Below are positions 1 through 53,149 of a stretch of DNA of 64,000 bases, piece after piece. The DNA comes from Raillietiella orientalis (Eukaryota), in the NCBI GenBank assembly GCA_036172245.1, contig JAYWIR010000029.1:1488001-1552000 (forward strand), read 5' to 3'. The notes beneath the pieces were generated by a model. The model made no database searches, had not been told where the DNA came from, and was given only the letters and a program-made list of their open reading frames with translations. The position numbers and the translations under genes are program-made. Every line of letters begins with the position of its first letter. The stretch's first letter is position 1.

Positions 1-3000
1 CCTCTCGGGATTGAGCCTCTAAGGCCTCTCGAGATGAAATTCCGCGTGCTGCGTGGGCGGGGCACCAGGTGAAATCTTTAGCCAGCAGTGGTCACCGCCA
101 CACGGAAGAGGAGTCTTCGATGACCTCTCGCGATGTGTCGGTAGAGTGCCCTGGAGGACAGAGGCACGTTTAACTCTCGGGAGTGGTGATTTCCTGGAGA
201 GTGTCGTCCCAGGAAACGGAGAAGGAGCCGGAAGGGCGAGAGGGCGGGTGCAAAAGGAACATTCGCCGGCGCTGGGTCAATCCAAGATCGCCCTACCCCA
301 GTACATTCTCACCGACCACACCGCGGAGTCCAGGCGGCGAAAAGGGAAGCAGCGGAGCGCCAATCCCTGAGCCTTTCTCGCCGAGACAGATTCCTGTCCG
401 CATCTTCCTCTCCCCCAGAGTCGTTCTCATCTGTTGCGAGGGTCATTGCTCTCCCATCCTCTCCCTCTCTCCCGACCCCATGGCGAGCAGGTGGAGGACT
501 CAGGGAAGGGTCGCTCGGAAACGGCGCCGTGCCGTCCTGTATGTCAGCCCGGGCACATCCAGTCGGTAATCCGACCGGATGCTTCGAGATGAGGTCCCCC
601 ACGTGTGGCCAAACTCCTGGTAACGGGGAAAACATGGAACGGGAAAGCATGGCAACGCTCCCCCCTTGCTCGCCTGCGTAGGTCAGCAACGCCCGAGTTA
701 TGCCGCGACAGAGCGCTGCCGTCTCCCACTCCCTAGAGAGCCTTCGAGAAACTTTGAGAGGCTGAATCGCCTCGAAGAGATCTGAGCCCCCTTTCTCAGC
801 GAGGACGACCACGAGAAGAAGCGAGATGCCTCCTCGATAGCTTTCCTTCCTTACCGGCAGGGGAGCTAAGCCCCAACTTTCGCGCAGGGTCCCCCTTTGC
901 TGATGAGAGCAGCCGACACACCTCTGAGGGTTTGGGGATGAATTCGAGGCCGCGAAGGTCAAGGGCGCTTCGGGTACCGGGAGGTGCCTTCCGGAGATAC
1001 AGACAAGAAGGAAGGTACTCGAGGCAGGACACTTTTAGTCGCACTCCTTTGGAAATGGCGGAAACATCCAAAGTCAAACGAAGGGTGTCACTGTCATCTG
1101 TGGTCCAGGATGCGGAAAACGGTGGCCATAGACGAGAGCATCAGTGACATCCTCTGCCGTTGCGCGATCATCCACCCTCATCCGCCACTCTTCTTCTGTT
1201 CTTCTTCATCAGTGCTGTATCAGCTTTCCCTCCAGCTGCAGCTACAGAAGCGGAGCTTTTCAGAAGAAAATGGATGAACAGTGGGCGGAATATGCTTAAG
1301 CAGCCCCTGAGCTGCCAGGTGGAGGACCTCGCAGGATCCCGCTAGTGCCTCCATCAGATCACGAAGATCCATTTCTGCCCCAGACCCGGACGGTGTTTTC
1401 GTTGACCTCCGATCTGAATGGATGCCAGTTAGAAGGGAAAGCGTCGGGACACCAACACGCAGTCGGCGATTGCTCGTGGCAGATGCTGCTGCAAGCTGAC
1501 GAAACGAAACGACGAGCTCCAACATCTTGCAGAGTCGCGTGGAAAGCTAATGGTAAAGCTCCATCTGATGGGAAGAAGCAGATGTACCCAGGTTTCCGGA
1601 GCTGAAGAAAAATAGAGGTTTTCTGAGCGATACACGGAAGTGTGGAAAAGTAGCAGGCGAAACGCAACTGCAGTATGTCAGCGACCGAGCGACAGATTTT
1701 ACAAGAAGGAAATTTCTTCAGGACGTTTCCTATCACAGATCACGAATTCTTCTTACCAATGAGCAACGGCACATTCTCTCATATCTCTTCACAACGAAAA
1801 GCGACTCAGGTTGGGTGTCAGTGGCCAGGAACATGGCGCGATTCGATTCCGGAAACAGCACTCTTGCAGGGGCACCTGAACCTGATGAAATCCTTTTCCA
1901 TGGTGCTTCCCAAGTGACGAATCTGTCGCTGTGCTTTCTAAGGGCAGTCAGGCAGCTTTAAATGATATGATGCAAGCATTTACGGACACTCCGAACCCGC
2001 GGGTCATTGAGCCTTCCAGGAGAAGGACAGGCTGCGACAGCCCTTGTGATGAACCTGAGAAAGAAGACTCCTCTTGTTTGCTTTTCATTGATCTGAGATC
2101 TCTTGAACAGGAATTCACGAGTAAAATGGCTAGCAATACATTCACCAGCCCCGAGACTCGGGGGTGCTACCCACGAGTGCGGTCTCGCGCTTTCAGAACG
2201 AAAAAGTGGGCCCTCCTCTATCAGAACTGCGGTCTGCATCCACGGAAGCCTCTTCACGACAGAAAGTCTGCCATTTTTTTTTTTCCATCATCGAAAAAAC
2301 TAAGTCAGGGCCTGCTTTCAAGGTCAGAGTTTGGCGTCAGATTCCGGTACATAAATGGAACCTGCCAGGCTCACTCAGCAGCCAAGCCACAAAATGACCA
2401 AGTTTATGGATGCCCCCAGGCACTGATTCGCAACCAGAGAAGGTGAGACCGCACCACGCGAGTAGGTGAGAACAACCTCAAGGCGGGAGAATCAGATCCT
2501 CCTGCCTCGCTCCATCCGTCCACAGTCAAGCCAACTTGTCGAGCTCCGAGTCTTCGAAAGATTAAGGAAAGAAAGATTAAGATTAAGAGAGATCTTTGGC
2601 GGCCACGAGGTGACAGGAGGGGTCCTAGGGAAGGAGGCAGAGACAGCAAAAACGGGGCACCGCAGTTAACAAAAATAGCGAGAGCCCGGGAGGAAGTCAA
2701 AAGCAAACAAACTGTGGCGACCCTCGGATACTGCTGTAACCGCTGGAAAATACGGGGAGACGCACAACACCGCGCGAGTCAGCTCCAAGGAGCGTCGCGT
2801 GACGCCATGACTTCTTCGGCAAGCAGCAACGACTCTGATTTCCCAGCTGTTCAGCCCACGGCAGATGTAGGGGGACGGAAAGTTGAAAGGAAAAGGGGTA
2901 GTTGGGAAACATAAGATTTCGTCTCATCCGGAAGCCACCGGCTTGTTCTCGAAATCTCTCCCGGGATCACTCGCAGCATCTTCTGCCAGCTTCAGCGAAA

Positions 3001-4658
3001 CACGCTCCCTGCGAAACCACGACAGCGATGGCGCGGTTGGCACGCACCGGCAACGATTCCGCTCCGAGACGAGCCAGGGCTGCATGTAAATTCATCCCGA
3101 AATTCTCCTCCCTCTCAGGGGCTGAGCACCACACGGAGAAGAGCTCCAAGCGGCCAGCCGGAGAACTCAACAGGCAGCGAGCATACAAGGATGACGGTTC
3201 AGTCCGGCTTTGGCGCAGTCTCGACGAGTTGCGCCGCCGTAGGAACCCCAGCGGAGTTGGATTCCGTGGAGTCGCAGGAGGATCCCACGTGCCTGCTGCT
3301 TCCAATCAGCTTCCTCCTTCTCGGCGGGTGAGAGAGCAGGCAGCATCCCGCCTCACGCAGGCCGTCGGGAAAGTTGAATCCCGGCATCTTTGTGATGTCA
3401 TCCGAGCCATGTTGGTGATGAATGCTCCCAATACTTGAAGAACAAAGGTTTCTCGTCAGACCAGCGTTCTTTCGAGAACAAAGGTGCCACCGTGGGTCAC
3501 AAGAGAAAGTGAAAACCCACTGTGCCTTGCTGCACTGCGTCGCCCCACGGCCGTCTCGCCGACACACTCTTCTCGTTACGAAATCGAATCTGCAGGTCAG
3601 TGTTTTCATGAGATCTGCCAGTGGTCTTCTCGTTTGTATTCTTGCCCGTGGGTTGCTGGTGGCATCTAGAAGCAAGGAGTGGAAACGTAGGTCTCCGGAT
3701 CGCACGGAGCAACCGACACCGAAACAACCACGCGAGTTCTTTTGCGGCAAAGAGCTGATAGCCAACCACACGAGATGATGTTCTTTTTCTCCTTCCCTCT
3801 CTCTGTTTCTGCTACTGTTGGTGGCTTTGGTGGGTGGTCTTGGTGGTGTGTTTTCGTATCGCCGAATTCTTAAATCGAGATCTCCCATACTGTCTCATTC
3901 CGCGAAGACCACGGACACCGAGAACTCTAGGTGTCAGAGACAACAACCAGGAGGAATTCCTGCAGAATGAAGGCCGGGTCCAAACAAGCAGGAAAGGAGT
4001 GCTTTCAGAAATGCCTGTTGCGATCAGGTGACACACTAAGAAACCAACCAATGTAGGTTCTCGAGAGAACATGAGGAAAGAGAAAGTCTCGCAGACAAAT
4101 CGACGAGGTCTCTGCGACGATCTCGAAAGGCAAGTCGGTGTTGTTCTGGCTCCGCCTTGTAATCAGGCTACAGGTTTGTCTAATGGTGGCTTTTGCATGT
4201 GGAAGGACCTCGGCCATTTCCGTGGGATCATCTCTTAACCGGAGCGGTCTGCGGAGCAGTTTCCATGATGCGGCGTTCAAGGACTTCGAGGAAAGGAACG
4301 GGTTAACCGCAAAATGCGTGCAGGTGCTCCTTTGGGAACGGCTCACTCCTGAGCACTGGAAGAGAACAGCATTGCGATGGACGGGAAAGTCCTGCTAGAC
4401 GCACATGAGATCTCACGTGCCGGGAAACACACGTGTGAAGCCCAGACGGTCGAGTGACTCTGAAAACGGAAAGAGCCACGGCCACCAAGTCTCGTGATGA
4501 AAAATTCGCGTCCTCCCATGGGAAGCAAAGCGACGTCCACGCATTTCGTGTTTCTGCATGGTTCCCATGACATTGAGAAGACTTCCGGCGGTTGCTTGAT
4601 CACACCTTCATCGATCTGACTGAATTTAGGATAGAAATCTGAATTTCGCAGCTTCGGT

Positions 4659-4677
4659 TTGTTGTTGTTGTTGTTGT
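4659..4677 (+). repeat. (TTG)n microsatellite
   Basis: About six tandem TTG units. Confidence 0.8.
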
Positions 4678-5797
4678 CGTTCCCTCGACCCAAGCGTACA
4701 CCCTTCTTCGAACACTTTATTTATTTCCTGGAATTTTTCTGGAACAAAATCCGATACCACTTCGTGATTCAGCGATTCCACTCTGAAAACTTAGGAGCAG
4801 GAGCGCTTCCAGCAAACGAAGAGACTCCACTGAAATCCGTGTAGCGTCCAACGATAGCATCCTCAGAGAAAGCAGCATTCTTTTTACAGGCCCCATTCGT
4901 AATCTGAGAAGCACATTTCGGGCGTTCCCAGATTGTTTTCTCTTCGCGCATAGTCAGGAACAAAGCGTGTAAGTTGGAAAGCACAGATGCACCATCGTGA
5001 GATGATCTTCATTTACGTTACTCCTCAAAAGTGTTTTGAATTCAGTTGCAAAACACAATCACAATGTTGGCATTAACCTTGGGAAAAAAACTTCTTTGGA
5101 AGGGGAGGACCGAGATGGTGGCAAATCGTAAAAGAGGAGAGAGATGCACTGGGAGTGGGAACGATTTCGATCCCAGTCGTGATTTAGGGAAAATCAGGCG
5201 TTGGTTGACCTGCCACCCTTGACAAGGGGTCTCCTGACTTGCTGATACACGCGTACAAATTCCGCTTCCACTTCCTTCCGTCCAATTTTCGGAGATCTTA
5301 ACGGGAAGTCCTTCCTCCTCGTTTCAAGGGTTGATTGAAGTCTTTCTTTTCATCGATTGTGTACCCAGAAGACGTTTCGCCGTGGCCAGCCTAAGCCGGC
5401 AAAGAAACCCTGCATGCGGTCCGTTGTGAACCGTGAATTCCTGTTCAAAAGAGATTTCAGATCAATGGAAAGCAAACACGCGGAGGAGGATATTCAGAAA
5501 TGGAAATCAAGCACTTGAAGGGAAAAAAAAATCGGGATGCACCGATACCTGCAGTGCGTTCCGTGAACTTAATGATACAAGAGAAATATGTCTCTCTTGA
5601 AACTAACGACCGCTGAAAGTAATTGACGATCAGTAATGATTAAAGCTAATTGGCTAATTGGCTGGATTATATAATCATTTGTAACCGTCAATTTGTTTAC
5701 TGCTACCCAAATGATCACGTAATGATTCCACGATGTAAAAAAGTCGTTACATAAGTCTTCGATTATATGCTCTTCCTAAATGCTCACATCCCTGTGG

Positions 5798-5825
5798 GTG
5801 TGTGTGTGTGTGTGTTTTTTTTTTT
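5798..5825 (+). repeat. (GT)n microsatellite followed by a poly-T run
   Basis: gtgtgtgtgtgtgtgtg followed by a T run. Confidence 0.8.
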
Positions 5826-7409
5826 ACGGACGTCCGAACACGAAAGTTTCAGGCTCGACTGCGTGCCGAAAGTGGAAAACACGTGAAAGACGGAGAGGCG
5901 AAGAACGGCGTTTTCGGCAGTGCTTTACCGTGGTGATACTTTCCGAGAAGAGATCCTCAGTGTATGCTCAAAAAAATAATCGAAAGTCATGGCATAATGA
6001 TGGAAGACCTTCCATCTCCAGCTGCAGATTTTTTAAGGGGTGATGCTTTAAACTCTAGTTCAGTGATATGTAATCCATGGTGATTGTAAAAAAAAAAAAA
6101 AAAAAAAAAAAAATGCTAGCACAGATTACTTCCATGTGCTTCGCATATTGAGTGGATTTTTTTTTTTTTTTTTTCCCCGAGGAATCCTTGTTTTTTTGAA
6201 AAAGAAAAAAAAACAGCAGTTCTGCTTTCAGTAATGCGTTGAGTTATTTCGAGAATGAATGAATGCATGATTTCCGACTTTAAGAAAAATTAGAAACCTA
6301 TTTCTCCGAAACGGTCAAACATGCATTTCCATCCATCCAAAACCAACAAGACTGAATTCGGATGATCGGCAAAAAAAAGAAAAAAGGAAGGAAAAAACCT
6401 TTAAAGACGTGGGCACTTGTTCTTTACCATCTGCATGTGCTTTTAAAAAGATGGAGATTCATCACAGCAAAAGCAATTTGCGCTTGATCTTATATTAGGC
6501 TACTGATTGATGGCAATCCTGATTTTCAAAAAACCACATTCAGCACTGAGGTTACTGGCGTCCCATTGAAAAGAGCGAGTATTTCACCGTCATGGCTCCT
6601 TTCTGCTGTCTGAAACTGGACGTCCAAAACGTGTGTGTTTCCTTCATTACTATTGCAGGCAGCATCGTTCCTCGAGGCACCTGTTCTGACCCGTGCCATG
6701 CGAGTTCAACTGACTCGACTGGAGGAAAATTCGTCATGAATCCTAAGTGATGCTTATGCCTTGCACACGAATTTTGCGTACGCCACGATTGCAAAGTTCC
6801 AAAGTCGGCTTTCAAAATAAAAAAAAAAAAAAGGAATCATGGAAAACGTGTGCTCATCTTTTGTTGGATCTCACAGGGAAATGAATTATTTTCTTCCGTG
6901 ACCAACACGTGGGTTTCCCGGATTTCTTTAAACAACAAGAAGGTTAAATAAAAGAGCACGACTCGGGATGCATGCTATAATTAATTAACGTCTCAGGATT
7001 TTTTTTTTTTTTTTCTCGAATACCTGGATCTGCCAATTCGAGGCGCTTTTCTTTTTCACACAGTGAAATCCCCACGCACATTTTTTTCCAAATGACTTTC
7101 AACGAGAAGATTCTCCGCACTCTTTGTCTTTGAATTTATAGAGTTGGCTTGGAAGTCCAGTTTGGAAAGCAAGGTAAACATCCTCCTCGTGCTCGCTAGA
7201 AAAGGGAGCGTCTGGTCTGCGACTTCCACAAGACGGTTTGTCGTGTTGCATACAAATTCCAGCTTCATGCGTGGGAAATTCCCTCTTCCAGAAACGAAGA
7301 CAAACCCTGGAATCAGCCGTAACGCTCGTTCTTCGGAAAGCAGCGTGGAAATGGGTGTGCTCCTTATGATTAGGAAACCGCACCCTACCTATTCAAACTA
7401 CCTGGTCCT

Positions 7410-11537: not shown

Positions 11538-14500
11538 TCAATACAGATAGACATCAATCACACGTCCTTCAATGCGGCTACCATCCATCAAGTCTTTGAA
11601 AAGAGTTTAGGAAGCAACTAAATGCAACAAGCTTGTAATTAGCATTAAAGGATACTGACTGCACGCTGTGAATCCTTAAATGAACCAAATCTAATTATTC
11701 CAGTTCCTTTTTCACGAATATCTGCAAATTTAATGTCACCTACTTCTCGAAACTTGTCACGAAGATTTTGCCACGTAAAGCTGGAAGGCAACTGAACAAA
11801 ACAAATTTAACATGCACTTGTTGTTACTTACATTTCGTACGATAACGGTATCTGAAGGGGCAGGTTGAGTACCATAATTGTTCCCAGAAAAATTATCCAA
11901 ATTATTAGCAATGGGTCGTCGAGTATAATCACCAACAGGGATATCACCTGAGGCCATACGTCCTCCAAGAGGAGAATTTAAAAGTGCGGACCCAGGATTG
12001 TCCATTCGAGTGAGTCCAGGTCCCTGATTCATATTTGGTGCAACTGAACCCAGTGCACCACTAATACGATGCATATCTGCTGCAGCCATGCTAGCAGCCA
12101 AGTTGCCCATACTGCCTAATCCTACACTGGCACCAAATCCTGGAGTCATTCCCATAGGATTTCCACCCATTCCTCCTATTGCATTAAGACTGCTAGCACC
12201 CATGTTGTTCATTGTCATGCCTCCCATAGGATTGGCTGGCATTCCTCCAGCAGGAAGTCCTGCATTAGGTGCAGCTCCCATAATGCCAGCCAAACTACCT
12301 ACTGGAACATCACTATGAAAGAGAAAGTGTTCACTCACCATTGCTACCACCACTCATCATCGGAATATGACCTATAGATTATAACTTGAAATCAATATGC
12401 ACTTTAACGCATCTCTTACTTGATATGTTGCTAAGTGGAGAACCACCTGCACCTAAACCCATTCCAATTCCTTTTAAGCCTACAGGTAACTTGGGATGGC
12501 CACCTTGATCCCTTTCAGATACTCGATCCATTCGTACAGACATCTTCCGGTCAAATAACATTTGGTTGTGAAACATGGCTAAGCTGTAGTCAAGGATAAA
12601 GAATGAAGAATCCATATAATGTAACATTTGTAATAAATGTTTCCCAGAAAAGCATCCTGAGTACGTCAAGAACACTCAAAAAAGGATACAAATAGCCTGA
12701 ACTGCCTCTACAGGATGTTCATATTCTACAGTACCATGGCCCCGACTGTTTCCATCTTTATCTCGATTCAATTCAGCATTTACAATTCTTCCAGCCATTC
12801 TGAAAACTTCCTTTAACTTACGGTCATCTACTTTGTAATCTAACTGCAAACCAGAAAATCAATAATTTCCACTCTATTCAACTTACATTTGCAACAAAAA
12901 CTTTGTTGACAAGTGGCCCATCAATTCCCAAACTCTCCAGAAAAGCAACACTTAAACCAAATGTGTTGCCAAATTTTCCTGTATCATTAGGCGGTACACC
13001 ACGAATGTCCATATCACCATGCAGACTGTCTCGATCACCTCTCCTTCCTCCAGTCTTCACCACACGACCGTATTTATCACGTTCTACATCAAAATCCTGT
13101 CAAAGTGGTATTGAATATCCTGTTGCAGAGTTTACACGCACCACCTCTTTGACCACTAACTGTCGACCCTTTAATTCATATCGATTCATTTTTTCAAGAG
13201 CCTTTTTGACAGAATCTGGTTTTTCAAATTCTATGATGCCACAGCCTCTTGGTTTATCATTCTCATCATGGAATAATTCCACAAATGCAACGTCTCCCAC
13301 TATACTTATTATATTTCCAAATTCTCAACGAAAAATATTTACCTTCTTTCCGGAAAAGATCTTTCAATTCCTGCCACTTGTACTCATATGGAATGTTAGA
13401 CACGTAGACCCTACAATCTGCAGGAGCTCGTCGTAAACTACGATCCCTAATTTGTCCATTTCTATTTCTCAGTATAACAAAAACAACATTACAAACCTTT
13501 CACTGCTTCGGTCCCTCTGACGACCTCGATCATGTCTTTCTCTAGCACGGCGTTCACGTTCTCTTTCTCTACTGCGATCTCTACTTCGTTCCCTGGTCAA
13601 AATTGGGTCCTGAGAAAAATCAGGGCCTTTTCCATCTTCCCCTATTGGTGACCTAAATGTAAGAGACAAATTTCATTACATTGAAGTAAAGAAAAACATA
13701 GCCATAACTGCAGCAAACCTAATGCACTTCACAGGCCAAGGAACACAATGAAAAAGAAAGTTTCAAAAAAAATGAGCTGAAAAATGCAAAATATCATCAA
13801 CATGTTCAATTCTATGGAGATGGATCAAAATAATCATTAAGAATCTACGCCTTCATATTCTAATAATCTGAATCCAGGCAAAAGCCTAGAACTGGTACAG
13901 AACCACTGAAACATGTTCAAGAACCACGACTTTAGCTTCTGGTTCAGAAAATCATGTAAAATAAAACTTCACAAAATGAGAAGATGTACAAATTCCAAGC
14001 ATGAATCCAAGAAAACTAATTGCACATAAGCATATAGAAAAAGCAAGATTCAGTATACAATAATCCACTATTATTGAACAAACTCAATTTCTCACTAAAT
14101 GATTGTAATTACAACATATTGAAAAACTCAACATGAATGAATACTCGACAAAATTTTTATAATCACTATCACAAACTTATTCCCTCTCCCCTGTATATGA
14201 ATATACAGTACTTCAAACAACCCCAAACAGCCAGTCATTTCAAGCTTTAGCAATACCCTAAAGCAAACATTATTTGATACATCATGCCATGGCATAAGAT
14301 GAAAACAATCAAAAATGTAACCATCATAAGAGATGTCTGTAAATTCCCTTTAAAAACAAAATCGGAAAAAAAATAAAATGGATTATAATACTTTGGTGGA
14401 TCAAAACTTTATTAGTATGCATCTTATATACTTACCTCACTAACTTTGTAACTCATGATCATACACATGCACTAATATTGCATAGCAAGCTTACCTAAGC

Positions 14501-14917
14501 ATTTTTTGGTGAGTAGGTGCAAAATTTTTGTAAACTTCGAATTGTACTTAAAAAAAATATATTCATAGTCTTTCCACTCTGGCAATTAGTTTACAAGCGT
14601 CTGTACTTGAAAAAAAAATTGGAATAAAACATGACAATAGAGGCTACATCCAGAATGACGATAAAATATGCAATGCTAGTAAAGTTTGCATGACAAATCA
14701 CTTCTGATATGCCATGAAATCTTGCCGAAAGCACATCTTCAAAATATTTCAATAACCCATGAATCAACACACATCGAGTTTGTTCAACAATAAAACGATA
14801 CACAAAGAATTCAATATAACTTCCATTACCTAAACAAAAATACCCATACCTGCAAACATTTTCCAGTTTGATTTCAAAGCCACCACTCTGATCTTGTGTA
14901 GCTTCAGTTTCGTTCAT
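11538..14917 (-). CDS. MYEF2: hnRNP M / myelin expression factor 2 family three-RRM RNA-binding protein (Drosophila rumpelstiltskin-like), about 565 aa, 11 coding exons
   Basis: Hand-spliced complement join: 14850-14917, 13497-13652, 13343-13446, 13145-13299, 12887-13096, 12690-12843, 12420-12578, 12339-12371, 11832-12298, 11656-11791, 11538-11593. Total 1698 nt, all introns GT-AG, phases consistent. RRM1 reads RVYVSNIPYEYKWQELKDLFRKEVGDVAFVELFHDENDKPRGCGIIEF. RRM2 reads KVFVANLDYKVDDRKLKEVFRMAG...GHGTVEYEHPVEAVQAISMFHNQMLFDRKMSVRMD, followed by the family motif KLPVGLKGIGMGLG and a Gly/Met-rich linker. RRM3 reads VIVRNLPSSFTWQNLRDKF...RAVNLMDGSRIEGRVIDV. Family assignment is from recalled hnRNP M/MYEF2 motifs. 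Confidence 0.93.
11594..11655 (-). other. U12-type GT-AG intron, 62 nt, in RRM3 of the MYEF2-like gene
   Basis: 5' splice site GTATCCTTT. Branch-like TTCCTAAAC at 11605-11613 lies about 12 nt before the AG. Splicing restores RAV-N-LMDG. Confidence 0.88.
12579..12689 (-). other. U12-type (minor spliceosome) GT-AG intron, 111 nt, in RRM2 of the MYEF2-like gene
   Basis: 5' splice site GTATCCTTT matches the U12 consensus. Branch motif TCCTTGAC at 12589-12596 puts the branch A about 11 nt from the AG, with no pyrimidine tract. Splicing restores QAI-S-MFHNQ. Confidence 0.92.
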
Positions 14918-22246: not shown

Positions 22247-25200
22247 ATGAACCAAAATCATTATTTGGAAACGTATAGTGATATCCATAGGCATTTTATA
22301 CAAGCAATGTTGCATTCCCATGTTTTAGATTCGAAGGAGGCAGGCCAAGTTTTAGTGAAGTGTTGCAATGCCGCAAAAAGTAAGTTTTTTGAGTTTCTAG
22401 TTTTACAGTACTGATATGTATTTATGCAAGTATTATATCACATAATAGCGTAGATGTTGTGGTTATTAAGGATATTTTGACTTACATATTTTGGTTATTA
22501 AGGATACATTATTCAATGGATCATTATTTTCTGTTCTGTTACTTAAATGGTAGTGAATCTGAATGGGTTATAATGTTTACTTTGAAACTGTTAAAACAAA
22601 ATCAGTTTATAAAATTTTTGTTTGTACATAATTTTTTACTAAAATTGTTTAATGAAATTTAAATGTTTGTGTTAAACTCTTGTGTCATGATTGGTTTTGA
22701 TTAGTTCTGGTTATTTTCTAAGTGCTATTTGCTGTATTCGTTCGATTTAAGGAGGTGCTGGGTACATATTGTTTATTGCTAGTTTGAATATAACTCGTGG
22801 TTTCCATAATTAATGATACTCCTATTTTATATAATTAAGTATCAAACCGAAGTCAAGTCATTGGAAATGCAAATGTAAAAGGCTTGCTCCTTAAGCATGG
22901 TTGGTGAAGAGTGAACATTTTTAATATTTATGTCATTTGACTGCATTAAGCAATTTGAGCTGTGTATCCATGATGATTCCAATGTGTGCTTTTAAGTGCA
23001 TCTTCTGAAAACCATTTTTACTTTGCACATGTGCCCTATTTTTATGCTATTTGAAAACAATTAAAAAAATAATTCAATGGAAGCATTGTAGAGCGTAATT
23101 TTGAAATTTATAGATTGGTTAACTAATTAATGTGGTATGGAATTAAAAGTGGAATTTTAAGTTGTCTTAATTTTTTTGCATGACCTACCTGTGCTGTTTA
23201 AGGTAGATGATTTACATTTTACTCTTGAAATGTTCGAAGTTTTTGTGATGGATCTTTGTGTTCCTCTCTTATCATGTCATTGTAAAAGACTATCTTTGAT
23301 TGATTACTTGACTTATGCCAAAACCCAATTAAATATTATGGTTTATAAATATTTTGGTACTTGTTGAGTTACTCTAAAACTTTTGCAGTGCTATGTTGAT
23401 ATTCTTCAGACTACAACTTGTTTTCAATGCTTTTGGTTTTTATATTGGTAGTTATCTAGACCCTTTTCTGTTATTACTAAACTGTTATGAGTTTGATTGC
23501 ACTACAGACACATGCTATACTATTCCCATTGATCTTGAAAACAAGTTGAAGATGTTATTTTTAACTCTGAATAGCTAATAGTATACTTATATTTGTTGGG
23601 CATATTGTTGAATTTGTTGAATTTCAGCTTCAATTTAAGATTTCCACTTACATATTAGGTTTTTATCAATGAAAAGTTAGAAGACTGCATCAGTATGTTA
23701 GAAATTCAATTGGAAAAAGCTATTGATTTTCTGTTTGATCCAACTATTTTAGTTTCTTATATTTGTTTCATTAGAAGTATTTCTGGTGGTGTTTTCTGTT
23801 GTGTTTGTATTGTTTATGTATGCAGTGCAGAGTTGGAACCTGTATATCCTTGTAAAAGAATAATAAGAAATTGAGTGAGAGAAGTTAGGTCCTTATTTCT
23901 TGTCTTATAAATAATCACATAAAACCAGCAACAAAAGATTGAATAGATTAAAAAGGTTGTGTATTTTCTTAAGTATAAGAATTTCTGTTATATTTTATAA
24001 ACATTCTGTTCATAAAAGACCCTTCATTAATATTTTCTTAGTTGTTTTACATTGACAGTATAGTTTAATGCAAAATTTAGTTTTTTAAAAACATATGATT
24101 ATGTATTGCAAGATGTGATTAATGTGCAGTACAAGAAAAATCTACAAATATTGATATGTTAAAATAGAATCGATAAGCCAGCTAGAGGATTTAAACCATG
24201 CCTTAGAAATTGTTATCAAGAAAATCAATGAGATGATACATCCCATTCATATGGCTGTTCGAAAGGGTACCTGTGAAAATACAGGTACCAGCTATTATGT
24301 TCTTATCAATTTGATTGACAATGATTTATCAAGGTAAAGTATTTGAAAATGCTTCTTTTTCATATTTAGAGTGTGCAATAGAGCAGCCAAAGATATTTCT
24401 CAGAAAGAGCAAGAGTATTTTAGAAAATTAATAGAATTAATTGTAACTTCTAACAAAGGCATGATATCATCCATTTCTGCTCTCAATGCAGTAGATAGCC
24501 TTCCTGTCAAATTATTGAAAAGTGAAGCAGAAGAAATAATCAAGAAACTTACTGAGGATAAATGGATTGATGAGGTAAGTGTATTCTTAAATTGAGCCGT
24601 GCAAGATATATAAACGGTAGCTTTTCTTGCAGAATAGAGGTCAGCTGTCCTTGAGCGTTCGTACATTAATAGAATTTGATCCATATTTGAAAGATGTCTT
24701 TCAAGATAAAATTACATTTTGCAACATCTGTAAGCAGTTGGCGATTCAGGTTGCTCTTTTTATATATCATCAGATAATTATAATTTTTTCTTCTTCATAT
24801 TAGAAGAGATTTATTCTTTGTTTCAATTAGTCTGTTGCATTAATGTGATTATTTTAAAGTATATCGTATTCATTTTGTCACTGATCAGAGTAGATTATAT
24901 CACTGCCTAAATTACTCTTTATTCTTAATTTCCATGTTGGCAAACTTATTGATTAATCTTACCACATTTTGTTTTCTATCCAGATTCTAGAGTTAACTAT
25001 ATTTAGTTTAGTGTGGCGAGACTACCGATATTCGATATCTTGGGCACTGACCAGGGAACTGCACTTTACAGTTATTATTTCTTTGTTGCAAATTTGTCAG
25101 TTTAGACAGTTGGAAAGTGTTTTACGGTTTTTTTTTCCGGTAGTCGTATGGCAATTGTCCATTCTCAGGATCAAGGAATATTTTGCCCTCAGCAAATCAA

Positions 25201-37900: not shown

Positions 37901-40900
37901 TCCCGCGGAGCATCTTTCACGAGATCCCTCCGCGGGTATTGCCTGCTGCCATTTCGACCTTGCCGTTCCGTCTATCGGTCCCACTGTCGTGCGCGCGCGC
38001 GGAGCGCGTCGGGGCAGTGGTTGGCACGGTCGAAGTGCCTCGTTTTGCTAGCCGTAATGAGCAGTATGGCGCCGGCCCTGGCACGAAGCGCCCGTCGATG
38101 TGAACAACCTGGCGGTCTCCCCTCCTCCTGGCCACGCGCCGCCCGTCGTCCTGCCGAAAGAGGCGAGCGTCGTATTGCCGTCTGTCCGTGCGTCACTGAG
38201 ACTGCCCACATACGACCTTGCGGTCCGGATTAGGGGGCAGGATGCGTAGGAAGGAAGGAGGATCAGCTTATCCGGGTTCGGAATCAATTAGCAAACCTCC
38301 CCCGCAAAACCACCCCCTCCCTTCCTTCCCTCCCTCTACTCTTCCTCCCCTCGCAGTCCCGAGCTGCTGTCGAGCCGACTGGCTGCTGGCTTCGCAGCAT
38401 CGGCCTGGTTGTACGATCGATTGGAGCGAGCGAGTGTTCGTTGCTCCGAGGCGTGGGATTCCTCCCAGATGCTCAGTCAAGGGTGAGAGGAGGAGGGAGG
38501 CGGGTGGAACGACTGGTCATTGCAGCGGCAAGGAGGCGCCAGCAGCATCTCGCGGCTGTCCCTAATCAGAGCGCCGCTTCGTCCGCGTGCGCGAGGGGTG
38601 GTAGGCTGCGTCTTCGCTTCGGCTCCAGAGCGTGGGCGGTGGCGGCGGCCGCGTGACAGCTCCGCGCTCTTGCGCTCTCCTTCTAGCAACGCCACCGTCC
38701 CCCTCGTCTCGAACCGGGAGGGAGAGGTGTGCACCGCCTACGAGGTGCCGGGGCGGCAGCGACCGGCTGTCCCGCTTCCCCATCCTCGCGGGAAGAGGAT
38801 GAGGAAGAGTTACCGGCTCCTGGAAAGGCTGGTCGGCGCCCTCGACCCTTGTCGTAAGCGGAGGGAGGAGCAAGAGAAGGAGGGGAATGCCCGGATTGAG
38901 TCCACGGGAGGAAAAAACGAGAACGGGAACCCCGTCCGGTGTGGACTCCCTCCTTGAAAGGAGTTCGGGATGTAACTGAGGTCACTCCGCGGGTATCGCC
39001 GTCTCCCTAGGGCGCCTTTTTTGCCTGCAGGATTGGTGCCGGCCAGGACAAACTTTTCGTTTGCAGCGAGGAGCCCGTGCGGTCCCTTCGGTGGGTCTTG
39101 ACCAAGATGGAGGGTCAGCTGGTTCCGGGCACTCGGATGGAGGGCTCTGAACATAACGGCTTCATCTGGGAATCTTCTCCGGTCAGTCTCTGCTGCCTCA
39201 GCATCTCGACAAGGCTTCACCGAGATCTGGGCGCGCAAGACCTCCAGAGCGACGCCGTCTTTTCCAGGAGCGCCAAACCTCTCCCCTCGACGGCTTTCGG
39301 GAAGGAGGTCGGCGTACGGGATCCCGGCTTTCTCTGGTTCAAGAGCAGGCTCCCGAGGTCGCTGTGCGGAAGCGGACGGCGCCTCCCCTCCAAGGACGGG
39401 ACCCACTCCTGGTTCGCTGTGTTCGGACGCGCGTCGTCTCGCGTATTTGACCTGGCTGGCTGCTATCCTTGGACGACCCTCCCCCCGTGTCGTAGGGAGA
39501 GCGATCGAGTCGGTGGTGGTCTCCAGCGCGCTTCTCCACCGAATTGGACGCTCTAAGGAACCGAATGACGGAGTCTCAGCGGGGGATGAGGGTAGCGCAA
39601 GGTCATCGGCAAGCCGGCCGAAAGCAGTGGCTGGTGGAAAGGTGAAGGTTGCTGGGGTTTGGCCGTGCTCTGACCGTCGTCTGGAGTGGTCCTTGTGGTG
39701 CCCTCGAAAGGGTCCTGTAGGATGGGGATGATACGGGCGACAGAAGGAAGGGACTCCAGATCCCGGGATGTAGCGCGTTGCTGAAGATAAGGTTGGGAGG
39801 GTTCACTTTCGGTAAAGCTGCTGAGGAAGACCTCTTCATAAGTTGATGGACATCGGTCATCAACCAGGATCGTTGACCGGAGAGCGTAGTTTTTCGATTT
39901 TCCACCCGACACTTGGCCGCTCCTCGCTGAGGATGCTGAACCATCTGCAGGACGTGTCGCGAGCTCCCGTCTTCGTTGCAGCACGCCCGTCCGCTGGACG
40001 CGGCGAAACCTGGGGGCAAGGAGACCCAGGGCAGGCGTTCTCTCTCGGGACGGCGGTGTTCTGCTCGGTCGCTCTGAGGGACAGTTTCGTGTTGCCAAGG
40101 GATGGGTGGGGACATGCAGAAAAGCGCGTGCGTCGTGAGCCGCCGCGCCGAGTCTGAGAGCGCCGAGTCTGAGAGCGCAGCATGCCGCGTGACCTTGGGT
40201 GCATCGTGACTCGAAAGACACTTCAGATTCGCTCGAAGAAATCCTAATCAAACAGTCTGAAGCCGAATCGAACGGGGCGTGATCCGAGGAGCACTAAACA
40301 ACCTGCGTTTTCCCCCTCCTCCTCCCTCCCTCCCTCTCCTTAAGGAAGACAGGGAGGGGGAGGCAGGCGCAAAAAAAAAGACCAGGTTCATTTCTGCAGG
40401 CCGTCACGCGGTGTCCAGACGAGTTAGGAATCGCTGGAATGTTCTTGTGGTCAGAAGACGGGAGAAGCGGAACTGATTCCGACGCGAGAATGGCGGCGTC
40501 GGAACCGCGCAGCCAGCTGACTTGCCCTTCTCTCGTCTTGCGCGGTCGCTCAGGACGCCCTCCCGCCCGTCCGCGCCCTTGGAGGCATCCGAGTCGCGCA
40601 CCCGGTTCCTCCTACCTCCCTTCTCTCAGCTCCCTTCGGCAGCGTCCTTGCTATTGTCTCGGAGACTGGGATTCACGCCTTCGTGCTCTCGCGCGGGTTC
40701 GGCGCGCAGACGGAAAGCGCGACTCCCATCCACCACGTGCTGGGCTTCCCGGGCGCCCGGTTCTCACTCCCCCCAGCCGCTCGGGGAACCACTTGCGGTT
40801 GTCTAGTCGCCAGTACGCGGCTAGGTGCAAGGGTGCCCCCTCCGAAGGCCATTTCGCCGTTGCTCTGTCCGTCGCTAAGCGACGGATGTTTCTCTGGGCT

Positions 40901-40943
40901 TCAAGAGTAGGCGCCATCGTCTTCCAGAGGTCACTTGGAGAAA

Positions 40944-41950
40944 TTTTTCACCCGGTCACGCCGGGGCGTTTATTTTATGGAAAATAAAGCAGTTGGGAAC
41001 ACGCTGGTTCCCAACCGACGATTACAAGAAACGAAGGGGAAGGTCCACTGACACGCAGGTCGGGACAGCAGAGAGTCCGAAACGGAGGAGGGACAAGAGG
41101 ACACCAAAAGTAAACAAGCGGGGTGGGAAGGGATAGGTATCGCTCCGCGTTCACCGGAAGGGTGGAGGAGGAGAGGAAGGGCAGAGGAGGAGGAAGGGAA
41201 GAGGAGGTGCAACGGAGCCCATAGGAATAGGGAACCAGAAAAATAAATAAATCATCATCAGGCCCGCCGTTCCAAGCCGTCCATTAACCGGCGATGGATG
41301 CGGGTGATCTCCTCCTTGGCTTCCTCTTCCAGGTGAGGCCACCTCGCAGCCGCTCTGATGTAGGTGGCTGCCATCCTGGTGACCTCCCTTCGCTGCGTGG
41401 TGGTTTCCAGTACCAGTCGGGTCCCAACGATGGCACGGATGCAACCGACGGTTGCAATAACTGCGCCCGTCGAGAGATCTCTCTACGCGAAGAACAGCCG
41501 CAGCACGTCTCGGGCGGTGTCCTTCTGGTGTAGGAGTGCTGTTGCGAGCTCCGCCACAGTTCCTGGAGGGAACCGCAGTCCAAAAGTAGGTGGAGAGGGA
41601 TCGACTCCGTCGACACGCACTTCGCACAGTTAGGGGATGCAACCCCTCCGGAAACTCGATGCCGCCGCTCGTTGCGCTGGAATCCCCAGTGGAAGAAGAG
41701 CACTGCGGCCTGCATCCAGGCGAGGGGGGGGGACAACGAACTGTCCACACACTAGGGAGGGACCACGAGTTCTTCAGGGCAGCACTGTGAAGTTCGTCCC
41801 ACCGAAGGAGTCCCTTCGTCACAGAATGCGGAGTGGCGGCATCCACCAACTCACGCGTCCTTCTGGCACCGAGGAGTTTCGCTTTTCCTGCGATGGTGCC
41901 GGAAACCTCCCACCTCGCCGGCTGGCTACTGTCGTCGCGTGCCCTGAGGG
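40944..41950 (-). mobile_element. Degenerate non-LTR retrotransposon 3' portion, same family as 7410-7837, with a C-terminal CCHC zinc knuckle; 5' boundary approximate
   Basis: Minus-strand translation SPNCAKCVSTESIPLHLLLDCGSLQELWR is the typical post-RT CCHC motif. It shares the 27-nt 3' terminus, followed by a short A run at 40944-40948. The frame is disrupted and no TSD was found. Confidence 0.8.
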
Positions 41951-42749
41951 CAGGCAGCGCTGCGGCGAAGGGCCAGCATCGAAAACTTCATCGCGTCCTG
42001 CATCACCACTTCCAGAGGTCGTGGCAATACGTGCGGCTTCGCGAACAGGATATAGCCCTGCGATGGATGCCGGAAGAAACCCACACTTATTCCAACGGGA
42101 TCAGCTTGTGCTTTCCCTGAGGTTTTCCCACTCTTGTCCCGGGTCTTGTTAGAATAAGACTTTCGTTTCCCTACGGTTGCTGTGTGGGACGAATCCACGA
42201 AAAAGTTCTTTCGGAGGAATTCCTAGCTGCTTTGGTGGTTACCGCGAGCACTTCCACCTCGTTTCGGTTCGCTTTTCGTGATCAGTCTCTTCGTGGACCA
42301 TCGTCTTGGAGACTCGTCCCATTTCAAAGTACGAATCCTTCTCACGCGCTCCCTGCTCGCACACTCCGTCTGAGTCCGCTTCCTTGCACTTTGGTCCACT
42401 TCTCCGGAAGGAGTTTTTCAACCAGAAGCTTAGTCCCGACTAGAACCAACCTCTTCTCTATGATCGACGCGAACCAGACGCCGTCCTGGAGTGCGCGGAA
42501 GGCGGCCGTGTAGCTGCGGCCTCCGCGTGTGGCACCACCACATGTCGCGGATACAAATCCCGCCCAGGGAAGGGGGGACTCCGAGAAATGGGTGGTACGT
42601 CATGGGTTTCGAGCCCACCCCCGCAGGATAACGCTGATTGGCCTTCGCGCGCGGCACTGCTGGAAGCCGGAAACTCCAGGATGTCCCCGTTGATTGGCTG
42701 GGATTGAAAGTCGACCTTCCGGGGTCCCTTTCGGGAATCAAAGGAGCAC

Positions 42750-43125
42750 TTCGGGATCCCCCCTCCGGTTGTGGGAATGGAGCCGCGGCACCATGGAGCT
42801 GATGATACTCCCCCTCGGGGTTGCCTCTCCAGAGTGTCAGAAGCGCTCTGCTCCCTTCGGGGAAATTGGGGAGCGTCCTTTCTTCAGAGGAGGAAACGAG
42901 GGGCGGATCATTTCCAGGAGGTTTCTCTGGAGAAGAAACGAGGAGTGATCCCCTCAGGGGGACCCCTCCGAAGAGAATGAGGAAGAGGTGATTCCCTTCG
43001 AAGCTCCCTACCAAGCGTGAGAGAGGAACGGACTCCTTCCCCCGGATCCGTCCTGGATTCATAGGGTGGTCCTGCTCCTGGGGTACACCCTATAACTTGA
43101 AGAAGAGCTGCACGCACCCTCGGGT
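42750..43125 (-). repeat. Dispersed repeat of about 370 bp, copy A (inverted relative to copy B)
   Basis: The reverse complement aligns by eye along its length with 54103-54493. Example: CAAGTTATAGGGTGTACCCCAGGAGCAGGACCACCCTATGAATCCAGGA versus CAAGTTATTGGGGGCACCCCAGGAGGGGACTACCCTATGAGTCCAGGA. TGACACTCTGGAGA and CAGCTCCATG..CCGCGGCTCC are also shared. Confidence 0.8.
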
Positions 43126-45250
43126 GGCGTGGACAACTTCGTGAGTTCCCCCCAGGGAGGAAAGGGTTCTTCAGCACTTAGCAAACCGGAAGACCTGACC
43201 CCGTGCAGGGTTGACCTTTCACGTACCATTGGGGCACCGATTCGTGACGCGGTTTGGCAGCAGCACCCCCGGAGGAACCTTCCCACAGCAGCGCTTTCAA
43301 GCAGCAGTTCGGTAGACGCTGGGGGAACTCGCAGAGCGGGAAGGCTGGTTTCGAGCCCGCAAAAAACCTTCGAGTTGGAGGGGGGGGAAGCAGCCGCAGG
43401 CTGCCTATCCCCGATTATAAGGGTCCGGGAAAGGGAAGCAGGCAGCCCCCCCACCCCCCAGCCGTCCACTCTCACAAAGTCCCGATTTCCAGCCGGAGTT
43501 TGCGAGCCGAAGCACCGCTGCACCGACCCCCCTTCCCCTGGGCAGTCTTGCCTACGTCGTAAGGAGATCCCGTCCCCCGCGTTCCTCTCCCTCAACGGTG
43601 TTTCATTCCGCGCGTCGCCGCTGTGCTACTCCCCGCAGCCATGCCACTGTCACTGCCTCTGAGGGGTGCAGAGGATCTTCGGGATCGTGCAGGGAAAAAA
43701 TGAAGACGGCGGTGGGGCCCGCAAATAAAAGAACGAAGAAGACAGAAGAAGAAGAAAAGGACTCGCGCGATGTTCCCGGTGACTCGTTATTGTCCTGAAC
43801 CTAGGTGCTGGATCAGAGTTCACTTGTTCGAAGAGAAAAAAGACATGGATCCGAACTGGTGGGATTCGGAAGATGGAAGATTCTGTCTCGGATCCGAATG
43901 CATTGGGAAGGTTCCAGGTTTCGGTGGGAGTCACTTCAATCGCAGCAGGCCCCTCAAACAAAGCCCACATCCACTTGATTTCCTCGAGACAGATTCGGAG
44001 TGACCTCTCTCCATGTCGGTTCCGAATGAGCCGAACGCGACCTCGGAACAGCGTACGTGCCGAATGGAGGATCCTTGGGGTGGTCGCGTTCCTGTTCTTT
44101 CCTTTATGTGGGTGACTCCTGAACGCTGCGCGAGGACTCGCAAGATCCGCTTCTTTCTGCGCCCCGGTACTGGGGGAGGCAAGTCGCCTAGCGCCCGATC
44201 GTCAACTATGCAGCTGATGAATCCAGACGTCCCCCTAAGCGGCGATTGGCCGCACTCGCTCGATCCTCGTGGCGTGTGACGTCAGCGTTTCCATTGACCT
44301 CATTAGCTCGTTCCATCCCCGTCGCAAAGCGCCCATCTTTCCAGAGACCGTTCAGCGTCTCTTCCTTTCTCTTGGACACCTTCGGCTACTGACTCACGGA
44401 AACGAGCCGCCTTTTTGTGGCGCCATCTCGACGCCGTGCATTCGAAAGCAACAGGGGAGCTCGCGGTTGGCTTCCTCATGGTTCGGCTTTCTTTTGCATG
44501 AACCCGCGCTCGGCGATATTTCGCTGTGCTTTCGGAAGGCTTTGCTGCATCCGTCTTACCACGTTTGAGCGCCGTACAACGCCTCCGGGGCTTTCCGTAA
44601 TGCAAAAACACACGCTTCCCAAAGTATTCTGCGCAACTCTTGGCTGAAGAGCAGGACGTATTCATTTCACTCCTGTTCCGAGCAGTGTCAAGAGCGGAAC
44701 TCTCGCGAAAGAAACTCGTGCTCGGTGGCCACTTTGAATGCGCGAGCGTCCAAAGTGACCATCGAGTCCGGGACTTGAACCAAAGGTCATGACCGGATCT
44801 AACTGGAGACGCTCTGGAGGTGGAAGTAGCGCCGAAGTCACGTATTGGGACCAGCGCACAAATCAGCCGCGAAGCAGAAAAGAGAGGCCACGTGAGAAAT
44901 GAGACCGAATGGGCCTCCAACGCAGGACGACTCAGGAGTCCTTTCGCTTCCCGGAAGGAATTGCCTTTTCCTCATGCAACCGTCCTGCTTCTTGCTACCT
45001 TAATCCATTGCGCCATGGCACCCCATTTCCAAATGATGCAGCGCTTATTACCGAAGGCGTTTTCTCAACCCGGAGGCAAACACCTAAGCAGCAAGCGTCT
45101 GGTGGTTACCGGCACCACAGTCCGCGGAAGATGTTCTCCCATACCTTCCACCATCTCGCAAGTATCCCCATCAAGGCCGGGACCCCAGAGCATGATAGGC
45201 GAAAGGGGTGGTTCGCAGACAGTTGGCAGACATCCTCTCCTACACCCTAC

Positions 45251-45316
45251 ATGTTTCGAATATTAATTAACACATTATACTCCAGGGTATTATAGGTTAA
45301 TTAATATTCGAAACAT
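45251..45316. repeat. Perfect 21-bp inverted repeat with a 24-nt spacer
   Basis: ATGTTTCGAATATTAATTAAC (45251-45271) and GTTAATTAATATTCGAAACAT (45296-45316). Confidence 0.95.
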
Positions 45317-46618
45317 TTATGGTGTTCCTAAAGGAGTACATATGGGCGTACTCTCAGTCAAAGGTCTGTTGTGAATATTTTATGCCAGGTGTAATATGAG
45401 TACATTTCATTACATAACGATCAATTAAATACCTTCATATCATGTAATGTACATTAATGACTATTTTCGATGGAATTAAATCGAATGTTCGCGCGACGAA
45501 GTGGCATGAAATGATCAGAAAAAATAATACTGAACATTATTTTATTTGTTTTACTCTTTGCCCCACCTGTTCGAAACTCGAAATGCCCTTGGGTTAGGTT
45601 TCGTGCACTGCGCGGTCAGCACGCGCGTGCCCTGGGACGCAGGTTCGCGCGGTGGTATGCAGATGGCACTGGTTGTAGCATCGCGCGCATCCGCAGAGAG
45701 GCTGGACGCCCCCAGCGCCTCACGAAATGTCATTTGTGATCTGTGGCAGCAACCACCGTCGACCTCCTCCTTGCGGCGATAGACCGCGGCGCCGATATCT
45801 CGCTCTGTGGTTCTGGAGGCGGCTTTTCCCAGGCGATCTCCAAGAAGGAGAGCAAGGGGAAGCAGAAGAGACAGGCGAACGGGCGGCGCGAAGGGTGGAC
45901 ACCCTCTGCGAGGGTATCAGCAGTCGCAGAGGGAAAAGGGAGAGCGGAATCTGCATCTTTGCGGGAATGAGAGACGCTCGCGATCCCTTGCAGAATGCCA
46001 GGATTCCAACGCTTCTGCTTCCTGCTCCGCATCGCCGACCCACGCCTCCTGCCACGTGATCTCTGCCCCGTCCTGTCCGAACGTTCGACGTCCACGTAGG
46101 TGCCCTCCTCCAGTCGGGGATTAGAGTTTCCAGGTAGAAAAAAGGAGGGAGGGGAGCGGGAATTCTTCCGGGCCCGCTCCTGAGCAGGAGAGAGGTCGAG
46201 TGCTCTCCGGAGAAGCTGCCCGCGACTGAAGGGCGGCTGGCCCGGCATCCCCCAGGCGGGCATCCTCGAGAGGGGTCGGACCGCGTCGATCTTCCCTCCC
46301 CCTCCCTAGTTTTCGTGCTGACCCGCTGACCCAGCCGTCTGGCGAACCGCTCCGGGGCGCGGAATCTCCATCTCCCCCCCCCCCCTTCCCTACGAGCTCG
46401 TGAGGAAAGGGGGAGATGACGTCAGCTCGCCGAGGAAGGGAATCGATTCCAGGGGCAGGGGCCTTCTGGTCTTGACTGGGAGGAGGAAGGTGCCCTCTAG
46501 CAATCCAGAGGGTACTCCCCACTTCGTACGACGGGATCGGGAGGGAACGCCCTGAGCTGTCCCCCAGGGAACTCTCCGGACCCCGGAGATCCTACTCATT
46601 CCTCCTCCTGCTTTCCAG

Positions 46619-52600: not shown

Positions 52601-53149
52601 CCGCCCACTGCGGGTGAGTCCTTGCGCGCCCCTCCTTCCGGGAACGGGAGCTGGCGTACGGACGGACAACCTCTTGTGGCCCAGGCCGTCCCTCTGAACA
52701 CTTCCTTCCCCGACGCTCCCGCGTGCCTCCTCTCTCTCCTCCTTCCTCCCCTCTGCCTGGAGAAAAACTCGCCTTCCCTGACAGAGGCAGGGCGACGCCG
52801 CCGTCGTCTCTTCGGATTCCTAGGAAGGGAGGGAAGGGGAGGGGGGAAACCGGCTCTCAGCAGCGGTCCGGGAGCGATTCTCCCCCCTTTCCTTCTCTCC
52901 TTCCCCTTTCACGGAAGTGATCCACGTCCTCTCCTCCTTGCTCTCTTTAGGTCATTCGTCTACGAGGTCCCCCTGGAGGTCTGCCTGCTCCAGCTGAGCT
53001 TCAGTGGCTGCTCCAGGCTCTGCCCCCGCTTCCACGAGCCCGTGTGCGGCACTGACAACAAGACGTACAGCAATCCCTGCTTTCTCGGACTGGAACAGTG
53101 CAGGTCGGCGTCCGCTGTCGTCAAGAAGCACGACGGGAGGTGCCGCTAG
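46619..53149 (+). CDS. Multi-Kazal-domain protein with 9 tandem Kazal/follistatin-like domains; 5' coding exon not resolved
   Basis: Join 46619-46901, 46955-47125, 48391-48534, 48909-49067, 50699-50857, 52272-52613, 52951-53149 (TAG). All introns are GT-AG, and the six internal introns are phase 2. There are nine six-Cys units, each with a C(G/A/S)(S/T)D core, e.g. PVCGSDGRIYSDEC and PVCGTDNKTYSNPC. From memory it resembles arthropod proteins annotated 'agrin-like' or 'dipetalogastin-like' (Drosophila CG32354 type); this orthology is unverified. Confidence 0.9.

Follow-up and report, generated by a model that had tools for sequence, protein, structure and literature searches.

Two probable U12-type introns at equivalent positions of RRM2 and RRM3 in an hnRNP M-like gene of Raillietiella orientalis

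Can a single gene carry two introns of the minor (U12-type) spliceosome at the same point of two repeated domains? The question is raised by an hnRNP M/MYEF2/rumpelstiltskin-like gene on the minus strand of a 64,000-nucleotide (nt) stretch of Raillietiella orientalis DNA (assembly GCA_036172245.1, contig JAYWIR010000029.1, positions 1,488,001 to 1,552,000 of the forward strand), here called the window and numbered from its first letter. A reading made from the letters without database searches (the sequence-only reading) had proposed such introns in the second and third RNA recognition motifs (RRM2 and RRM3) of this gene. Its premise that minor introns usually occur once per gene agrees with the figure of 722 minor introns in 699 human genes given in PMC7507305. 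We conclude, with a probability of about 0.85, that the two are true GT-AG introns of the U12 type, which the minor spliceosome takes out, and that the other eight introns of the gene are U2-type.

Two introns with the signals of the minor spliceosome

The gene, the two introns (A in RRM2, B in RRM3) and their signals are placed as follows.

11538..14917, minus strand: coding part of the hnRNP M/MYEF2/rump-like gene (sequence model, contig joints and Pfam RRM_1)
12579..12689, minus strand: intron A (intron 6), probable U12-type, 111 nt, phase 1, in RRM2 (contig joint and signals)
12681..12689, minus strand: 5' splice site of intron A, GTATCCTTT (sequence)
12589..12596, minus strand: branch motif of intron A, TCCTTGAC; branch adenosine at 12590, 11 nt before the last intron base
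11594..11655, minus strand: intron B (intron 10), probable U12-type, 62 nt, phase 1, in RRM3 (contig joint and signals)
11647..11655, minus strand: 5' splice site of intron B, GTATCCTTT (sequence)
11605..11613, minus strand: branch motif of intron B, TTCCTAAAC; branch adenosine at 11606, 12 nt before the last intron base

Contigs of two public runs, X1 and X2, which hold small word shares of the region (0.15 and 0.07), were aligned to the window; that X2 is an RNA run is no more than a guess in its listing. The contigs gave nine joints, all GT..AG and on the minus strand, covering nine of the ten introns. The joint 11593/11656 skips the 62 nt of intron B in a 154-nt X2 contig with 0 differences from the window, and the joint 12578/12690 skips the 111 nt of intron A in a 295-nt X2 contig with 13 differences. 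The joints of this presumed RNA run fall exactly on the predicted borders of both introns. Because of its 13 differences, the 295-nt contig probably stems from another allele, copy or strain. It covers 12500-12917, and the X2 contig over 11509-11724 is identical to the window.

As the sequence-only reading had it, the two introns start identically, with GTATCCTTT, and this start matches the U12 5' splice-site consensus (RTATCCTTT) at 9/9 positions in each. The claimed U12-like branch motif is likewise present in both, its adenosine only 11–12 nt from the AG; in intron B, TTCCTAAAC shows a single mismatch relative to TTCCTTAAC. Pyrimidine content at -23..-4 was 0.70 in intron A and 0.75 in intron B, over a span that takes in the branch motif itself. 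In intron A a nearer AG (12585..12584), 6 nt past the branch adenosine, is bypassed in the contig, and the AG at 11 nt is used.

The gene model bears out phase 1 for both introns, and the point at which they cut the RRM is the same, as had been proposed: both upstream exons end at Pfam RRM_1 position 56 of 70 (a 56/57 split). Intron A splits ..VEAVQAI from (S)MFHNQ and intron B splits ..DSQRAV from (N)LMDGS; consistently, a profile alignment of RRM2 with RRM3 (13 orthologues) sets ..AVQAI/S opposite ..ERAV/N (the slash marks the intron). In the textbook RRM topology this point belongs to helix 2. RRM1 is intronless there, exon 4 running through the equivalent KKALEKMNR, again as first described.

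We asked how often such signals would arise by chance. For the 5' sequence GTATCCTTT, 0.56 occurrences are expected in the window and 3 were counted, a number reached in 2 of 100 shuffles. A composite signature was then defined as RTATCCTT, followed by TCCT[TA]RAY, followed by AG or AC 9–15 nt past the branch adenosine. It was found 3 times in the window, compared with a mean of 0.083 in 300 local Markov simulations, among which 25/300 held at least one match and 0/300 held two or more.

For scoring, 12-mers of the window were looked up in the supplement table of mammalian minor introns of Olthof et al. 2019 (Minor Intron Database, MIDB; PMC6717393), whose methods give a branch-site cut-off of 65. 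The 5' 12-mer of intron A, TTTGTATCCTTT, has 23 occurrences in that table, with scores of 96.1 (mouse) and 96.8 (human) among the matches listed, and that of intron B, TCAGTATCCTTT, has 22, with 94.9 and 92.7 among the matches listed. The intron A branch 12-mer, TTATCCTTGACT, is identical to the mouse Capn11 branch site (score 90.2). The intron B branch 12-mer, GCTTCCTAAACT, is absent from the same supplement table; its core, TCCTAAAC, is the listed branch site of human PLCB2 (68.6) and EFL1P1 (67.1), both scores lying above the cut-off of 65.

For introns with these signals, U11 would pair with GTATCCTTT at the 5' splice site and U12 with the branch site, TCCTTGAC or TTCCTAAAC. The 5' site and the branch site would be recognised together by U11 and U12, and the 3' AG would be picked by its distance, 11–12 nt from the branch adenosine.

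The sequence-only reading had also called 62 nt short for a U12 intron. This holds by mammalian standards but not for a genome of short introns. Of the gene's nine short introns, seven measure 40–50 nt and are exceeded by the U12-type pair (62 and 111 nt). Larue and Roy 2023 (PMC10639083) report that species with longer major introns also have longer minor ones, and that the average in one species falls just below 42 bp. Because the two lengths rise together and the local introns are of 40–50 nt, 62 nt is not odd here.

The gene itself (coding sequence 14917..11538, minus strand; 11 exons, 565 amino acids, three RRMs) was modelled from the sequence and corrected with the spliced contigs. It is an orthologue of hnRNP M/MYEF2/rumpelstiltskin. 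Pfam RRM_1 matches exon 4 (E 1.9e-10), exon 6 (E 1.7e-10) and exon 10 (E 4.3e-6), so placed that the three RRMs follow one another as in the family, RRM2 and RRM3 being separated by a Met/Gly-rich stretch, and in alignment the exon pieces cover the full length of 17 family proteins. The named nearest relatives are arthropod 'myelin expression factor 2', 'hnRNP M' and 'rumpelstiltskin' proteins, with at most 78% identity over the RRM2 exon, and the solved structure matching that exon is human hnRNP M RRM2 (PDB 2do0, E 2.5e-14). The window protein sits on a long, unplaced branch in an unfinished quick tree; its best identity is 55%, to a dragonfly protein. For the RRM3 exon (11657-11791, minus strand) the nearest solved structure is the second RRM of SRSF1 (E 1.1e-8), with which it has a ..SWQDLKD-like stretch in common; the structure of human hnRNP M RRM3 comes behind it (E about 2e-6).

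The RRM exons and the introns next to them are given below; introns 5 and 9 have an identical RRM position and an identical phase.

13299..13145, minus strand: exon 4, RRM1 (Pfam RRM_1)
13144..13097, minus strand: intron 4, the sole intron without contig cover
12844..12886, minus strand: intron 5, U2-type, 43 nt, phase 0, after ..VFVAN in RRM2 strand 1 (contig joint)
12690..12843, minus strand: exon 6, RRM2 core (Pfam RRM_1 positions 6-56), flanked by phase-0 intron 5 and intron A
11792..11831, minus strand: intron 9, U2-type, 40 nt, phase 0, after ..VIVRN in RRM3 strand 1 (contig joint)
11656..11791, minus strand: exon 10, RRM3 core (Pfam RRM_1 positions 6/7-56), flanked by phase-0 intron 9 and intron B

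Lengths of 29 nt for intron 2 and 37 nt for intron 8, taken from a model built on sequence only, were discarded, the contigs giving 50 nt and 40 nt. Intron 2 (13447-13496, minus strand) skips its first in-frame AG and is spliced to one lying 21 nt further downstream (one contig). Intron 8 (12299-12338, minus strand) has a tandem acceptor, CAGTAG, of which the distal AG is used (one contig).

The gene family and the same two sites elsewhere

Minor introns are already on record in this family. Supplementary files 1 and 8 of Olthof et al. 2019 (PMC6717393) give a single minor intron for HNRNPM and likewise for MYEF2, both in human and in mouse; the donor listed for HNRNPM is exonic TAT followed by GTATCCTT, and MYEF2 is listed with TTT followed by GTATCCTGA and with the branch site CTTTCCTTGACT. 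A figure legend in PMC10853781 shows a 'U12-type intron' for human HNRNPM, which is also among the minor-intron genes tabulated in PMC7507305. Mouse Hnrnpm is described as having a phase-1 minor intron that is retained upon U11 loss (PMC12956336) and exon skipping around the minor intron (bioRxiv 2022.11.10.516037), and Myef2 is cited as a U12-intron gene (PMC8850803, PMC5063418). For the honeybee rump orthologue (GeneID 411969), row 58 of Table S1 in Janice et al. 2012 (PMC3291851) gives one GT-AG U12 intron, with Mount et al. as its source. The sequence-only reading had allowed that both introns might prove to be catalogued across metazoans at a cost to novelty. HNRNPM, MYEF2 and bee rump are indeed known minor-intron genes, with one intron listed for each, and novelty is lowered.

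The mammalian HNRNPM/MYEF2 intron resembles those of the window in its gene family, in its GT-AG U12 type and in a GTATCCT donor after exonic T[AT]T, a triplet that fits ..Ile/Ser. The MYEF2 branch site CTTTCCTTGACT resembles TTATCCTTGACT of the window, and the mouse Hnrnpm intron is phase 1, as in the window. In contrast, the mammalian genes have one minor intron each, of 466–1146 nt, whereas the window gene has two, and its intron A measures 111 nt. From the exonic triplets, a mid-gene coordinate and the likeness of the branch sites, we infer that the vertebrate minor intron is the RRM2 one; the gene spans by which the human intron falls mid-gene are those that we assume. Honeybee rump is an arthropod orthologue of the window gene and likewise has a GT-AG U12 intron; it differs in that one intron is listed, with no position given in the table, where the window gene has two.

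More than one minor intron per gene is a feature for which the voltage-gated channel family was reportedly noted by Wu and Krainer in 1999 (a study named in PMC6865273), with two U12 introns per gene, which may sit at equivalent repeat positions. Ca-alpha1D/CACNA1D appears with two U12 introns, entries A and B, in Table S1 of PMC3291851; it is like the window gene in having more than one minor intron in a repeated-domain gene, but belongs to another protein family. Conversion from U12 to U2 type and minor-intron loss have been reported (PMC3291851, PMC10639083); compared with such cases, the window gene is unconverted at both sites. Our literature search, which left automated catalogues of other species aside, found no paper on a pair of minor introns that share an RRM position in this gene.

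A scan of metagenome contigs with the family alignment yielded 80 loci. The RRM2 site was recognisable in 68 of them: 41 were intronless (among them loci that are plainly transcript contigs), 23 had a GTATCC donor (at least 10 distinct sequences, several loci coming from near-identical contigs), and four had another GT donor (GTAAGT twice, GTATGT and GTCTGT; loci L023, L024, L052 and L056). The 3' end could be located in 4 of the 23 GTATCC loci, and all four carry TTCCTT[TG]AC 11–13 nt before the AG. None of the 23 reaches the full RRM3; L063 holds only its first 18 residues.

The RRM3 site was recognisable in 33 loci and occupied in 11, with 10 U2-type introns (L008, L016, L031-L035, L037, L039 and L046) and one U12-type intron (L036); the remaining 22 were intronless. 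All ten U2-type introns are phase 1 with the donor GTAAGT or GTGAGN, and a clear pyrimidine tract is seen in 4 of the 8 acceptors located. At L036 the RRM3 site reads GTATCCTTTTCA ... TTTTCCTTAAT, then 13 nt before the AG. This locus closely matches hymenopteran proteins and is intronless at RRM2. Since a hymenopteran-like locus has its U12 intron at RRM3 and none at RRM2, the catalogued bee intron is probably the RRM3 one. Minor introns of other organisms are seen at the orthologous sites, at RRM2 with a GTATCC donor in 23/68 loci and at RRM3 in this single locus.

The loci with U2-type introns at the RRM2 or the RRM3 site are candidate U12-to-U2 conversions in metagenome eukaryotes.

Origin of the pair, rival readings and the rest of the window

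How did one gene come to hold both introns? We think it likely that both minor introns are old and survive here, and that elsewhere they disappeared or became U2-type. Vertebrates would keep the RRM2 intron as U12-type, if the equivalence argued above is right, and Hymenoptera-like insects would keep the RRM3 one, while in several other lineages the introns would have been lost or converted.

The sequence-only reading had gone further, suggesting that the pair predates the RRM duplication: an ancestral RRM would already have carried one U12 intron, from which both would descend through the internal duplication giving rise to RRM2 and RRM3. This we regard as possible but, on balance, doubtful. 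RRM2 and RRM3 do share both intron positions and both phases (phase 0 after strand 1, at ..AN/L and ..RN/L; phase 1 at 56/57), and sharing both (intron 5 with 9, intron 6 with 10) would be unlikely for unrelated insertions. Both U12 sites also appear to be old, the RRM2 site being shared, on the reading above, by vertebrates and a number of invertebrate contig groups and the RRM3 site being occupied in 11/33 loci. However, RRM2 and RRM3 are the least similar pair of RRMs: hhalign gave 52.3 for RRM2-RRM3, against 72.3 for RRM1-RRM2 and 85.5 for RRM1-RRM3, and BLASTP of the RRM2 core exon gave no alignment to RRM3 but E 3e-6 to RRM1. RRM1, moreover, has neither intron. Given these similarities, the duplication would have to predate all three RRMs, with both introns later lost from RRM1. 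The shared positions thus stand, and the descent built on them is weakened. Equally tentative is the idea that the U12 pair and the common phase-0 intron were copied along with one ancestral RRM unit, whose exon-intron structure they repeat. If true, the minor intron would predate the hnRNP M RRM duplication, and one locus would keep the copies that vertebrates and Hymenoptera have each kept singly.

Several observations weigh against the assignment of the two introns to the minor spliceosome, or against its wider support. The branch motif of intron B carries a T-to-A mismatch, and the two catalogued sites that share its core score only 67–69. The RNA support comes from a single run, taken to be RNA by guess, and has the form of assembled contigs. 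The equivalence with a vertebrate RRM2 intron draws on triplets, a coordinate set against assumed gene spans, and branch likeness. Lastly, the window gene has loose U2-type donors (GTTTGT, GTGGTG), so the major spliceosome here may tolerate odd donors.

This last point bears on the possibility that the introns are relics, the minor spliceosome having been lost and the major one removing them despite their U12-like ends. Other donors of the gene are indeed weak by U2 standards, and near-complete or complete minor-intron loss is reported for several arthropod and rotifer groups (PMC10639083). We nevertheless consider this explanation improbable. Two independent signal sets are intact, each with the full 9-nt 5' site and a branch motif at 11–12 nt. 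Where the same sites are U2-type, the donors are GTAAGT, GTGAGT, GTATGT and GTCTGT, with a pyrimidine tract at four of the five acceptors checked for one. Intron A also passes over the AG 6 nt beyond its branch adenosine in favour of the one at 11 nt. Removal of both introns by the minor spliceosome is the explanation that we prefer.

Chance resemblance in AT-rich introns can be dismissed as having a negligible probability: the genome is AT-rich and one more composite match (22507, minus strand) is clearly no intron, but two or more matches arose in 0/300 simulations, and the two in question lie exactly on contig-supported exon borders of one gene, at sites that have GTATCC donors elsewhere.

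The additional composite match at 22507 (minus strand) was rejected as a U12 intron: it consists of ATCCTTAATAACCA repeated 32 nt apart in non-coding-looking DNA. The repeat, at 22460-22510 (minus strand), mimics a 52-nt U12 intron.

Elsewhere in the window, blocks of 53–63% G+C lie at 1-6000 and 38000-54000, the rest being 30–42% G+C. The G+C-rich blocks hold neither long bacterial-type open reading frames nor tandem repeats with a score of at least 150. Among 132 other open frames scanned with Pfam, the only domains found were of the Kazal type, in the following frames.

46501-46902, plus strand: Kazal-type inhibitor open frame (Pfam)
46701-47126, plus strand: Kazal-type inhibitor open frame (Pfam)
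47603-48535, plus strand: Kazal-type inhibitor open frame (Pfam)
52102-52614, plus strand: Kazal-type inhibitor open frame (Pfam)
52598-53146, plus strand: Kazal-type inhibitor open frame (Pfam)

These frames suggest a multi-Kazal gene at 46501-53146 (plus strand), with a base make-up very unlike that of its neighbours. The third GTATCCTTT of the window (52102-52110, plus strand) lies within this region, with a pyrimidine-rich CAG acceptor about 170 nt downstream; within the spacing required by the composite scan, it has no U12 branch motif.

Consequences for the gene and the lineage

What would two minor introns mean for the gene? Stops lie just inside both introns, so that retention would lead to ..QAICILF and a stop in the case of intron A and to ..RAVSIL and a stop in the case of intron B; full-length protein would therefore need both spliceosomes. 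Upon retention of intron A, the stop would lie upstream of four further exon junctions, and the transcript should be a target of nonsense-mediated decay. Upon retention of intron B, the last intron, the product would be a protein without the last strand of RRM3. From the mouse data it is plausible that minor splicing may limit the output of the gene.

The lineage itself would appear still to have a minor spliceosome, because two perfect consensus sets persist in a gene whose counterparts in other lineages show GTAAGT or GTGAGT at these sites. An Rfam search of the window at the gathering score gave 0 matches.

Because HNRNPM, MYEF2 and bee rump were already known for minor introns, novelty is limited: catalogues already hold the gene family and one or both of the two sites, and the modest addition is the double, domain-equivalent arrangement. 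The window gene provides a contig-supported example of two probable minor introns at homologous positions of repeated domains, in a setting where ordinary introns measure 40–50 nt. Both sites are likely to be old and to have been lost or converted independently in animal lineages, which would make them useful for reconstructing minor-intron loss and conversion. The pair further implies that a lineage with small introns may still run a minor spliceosome.

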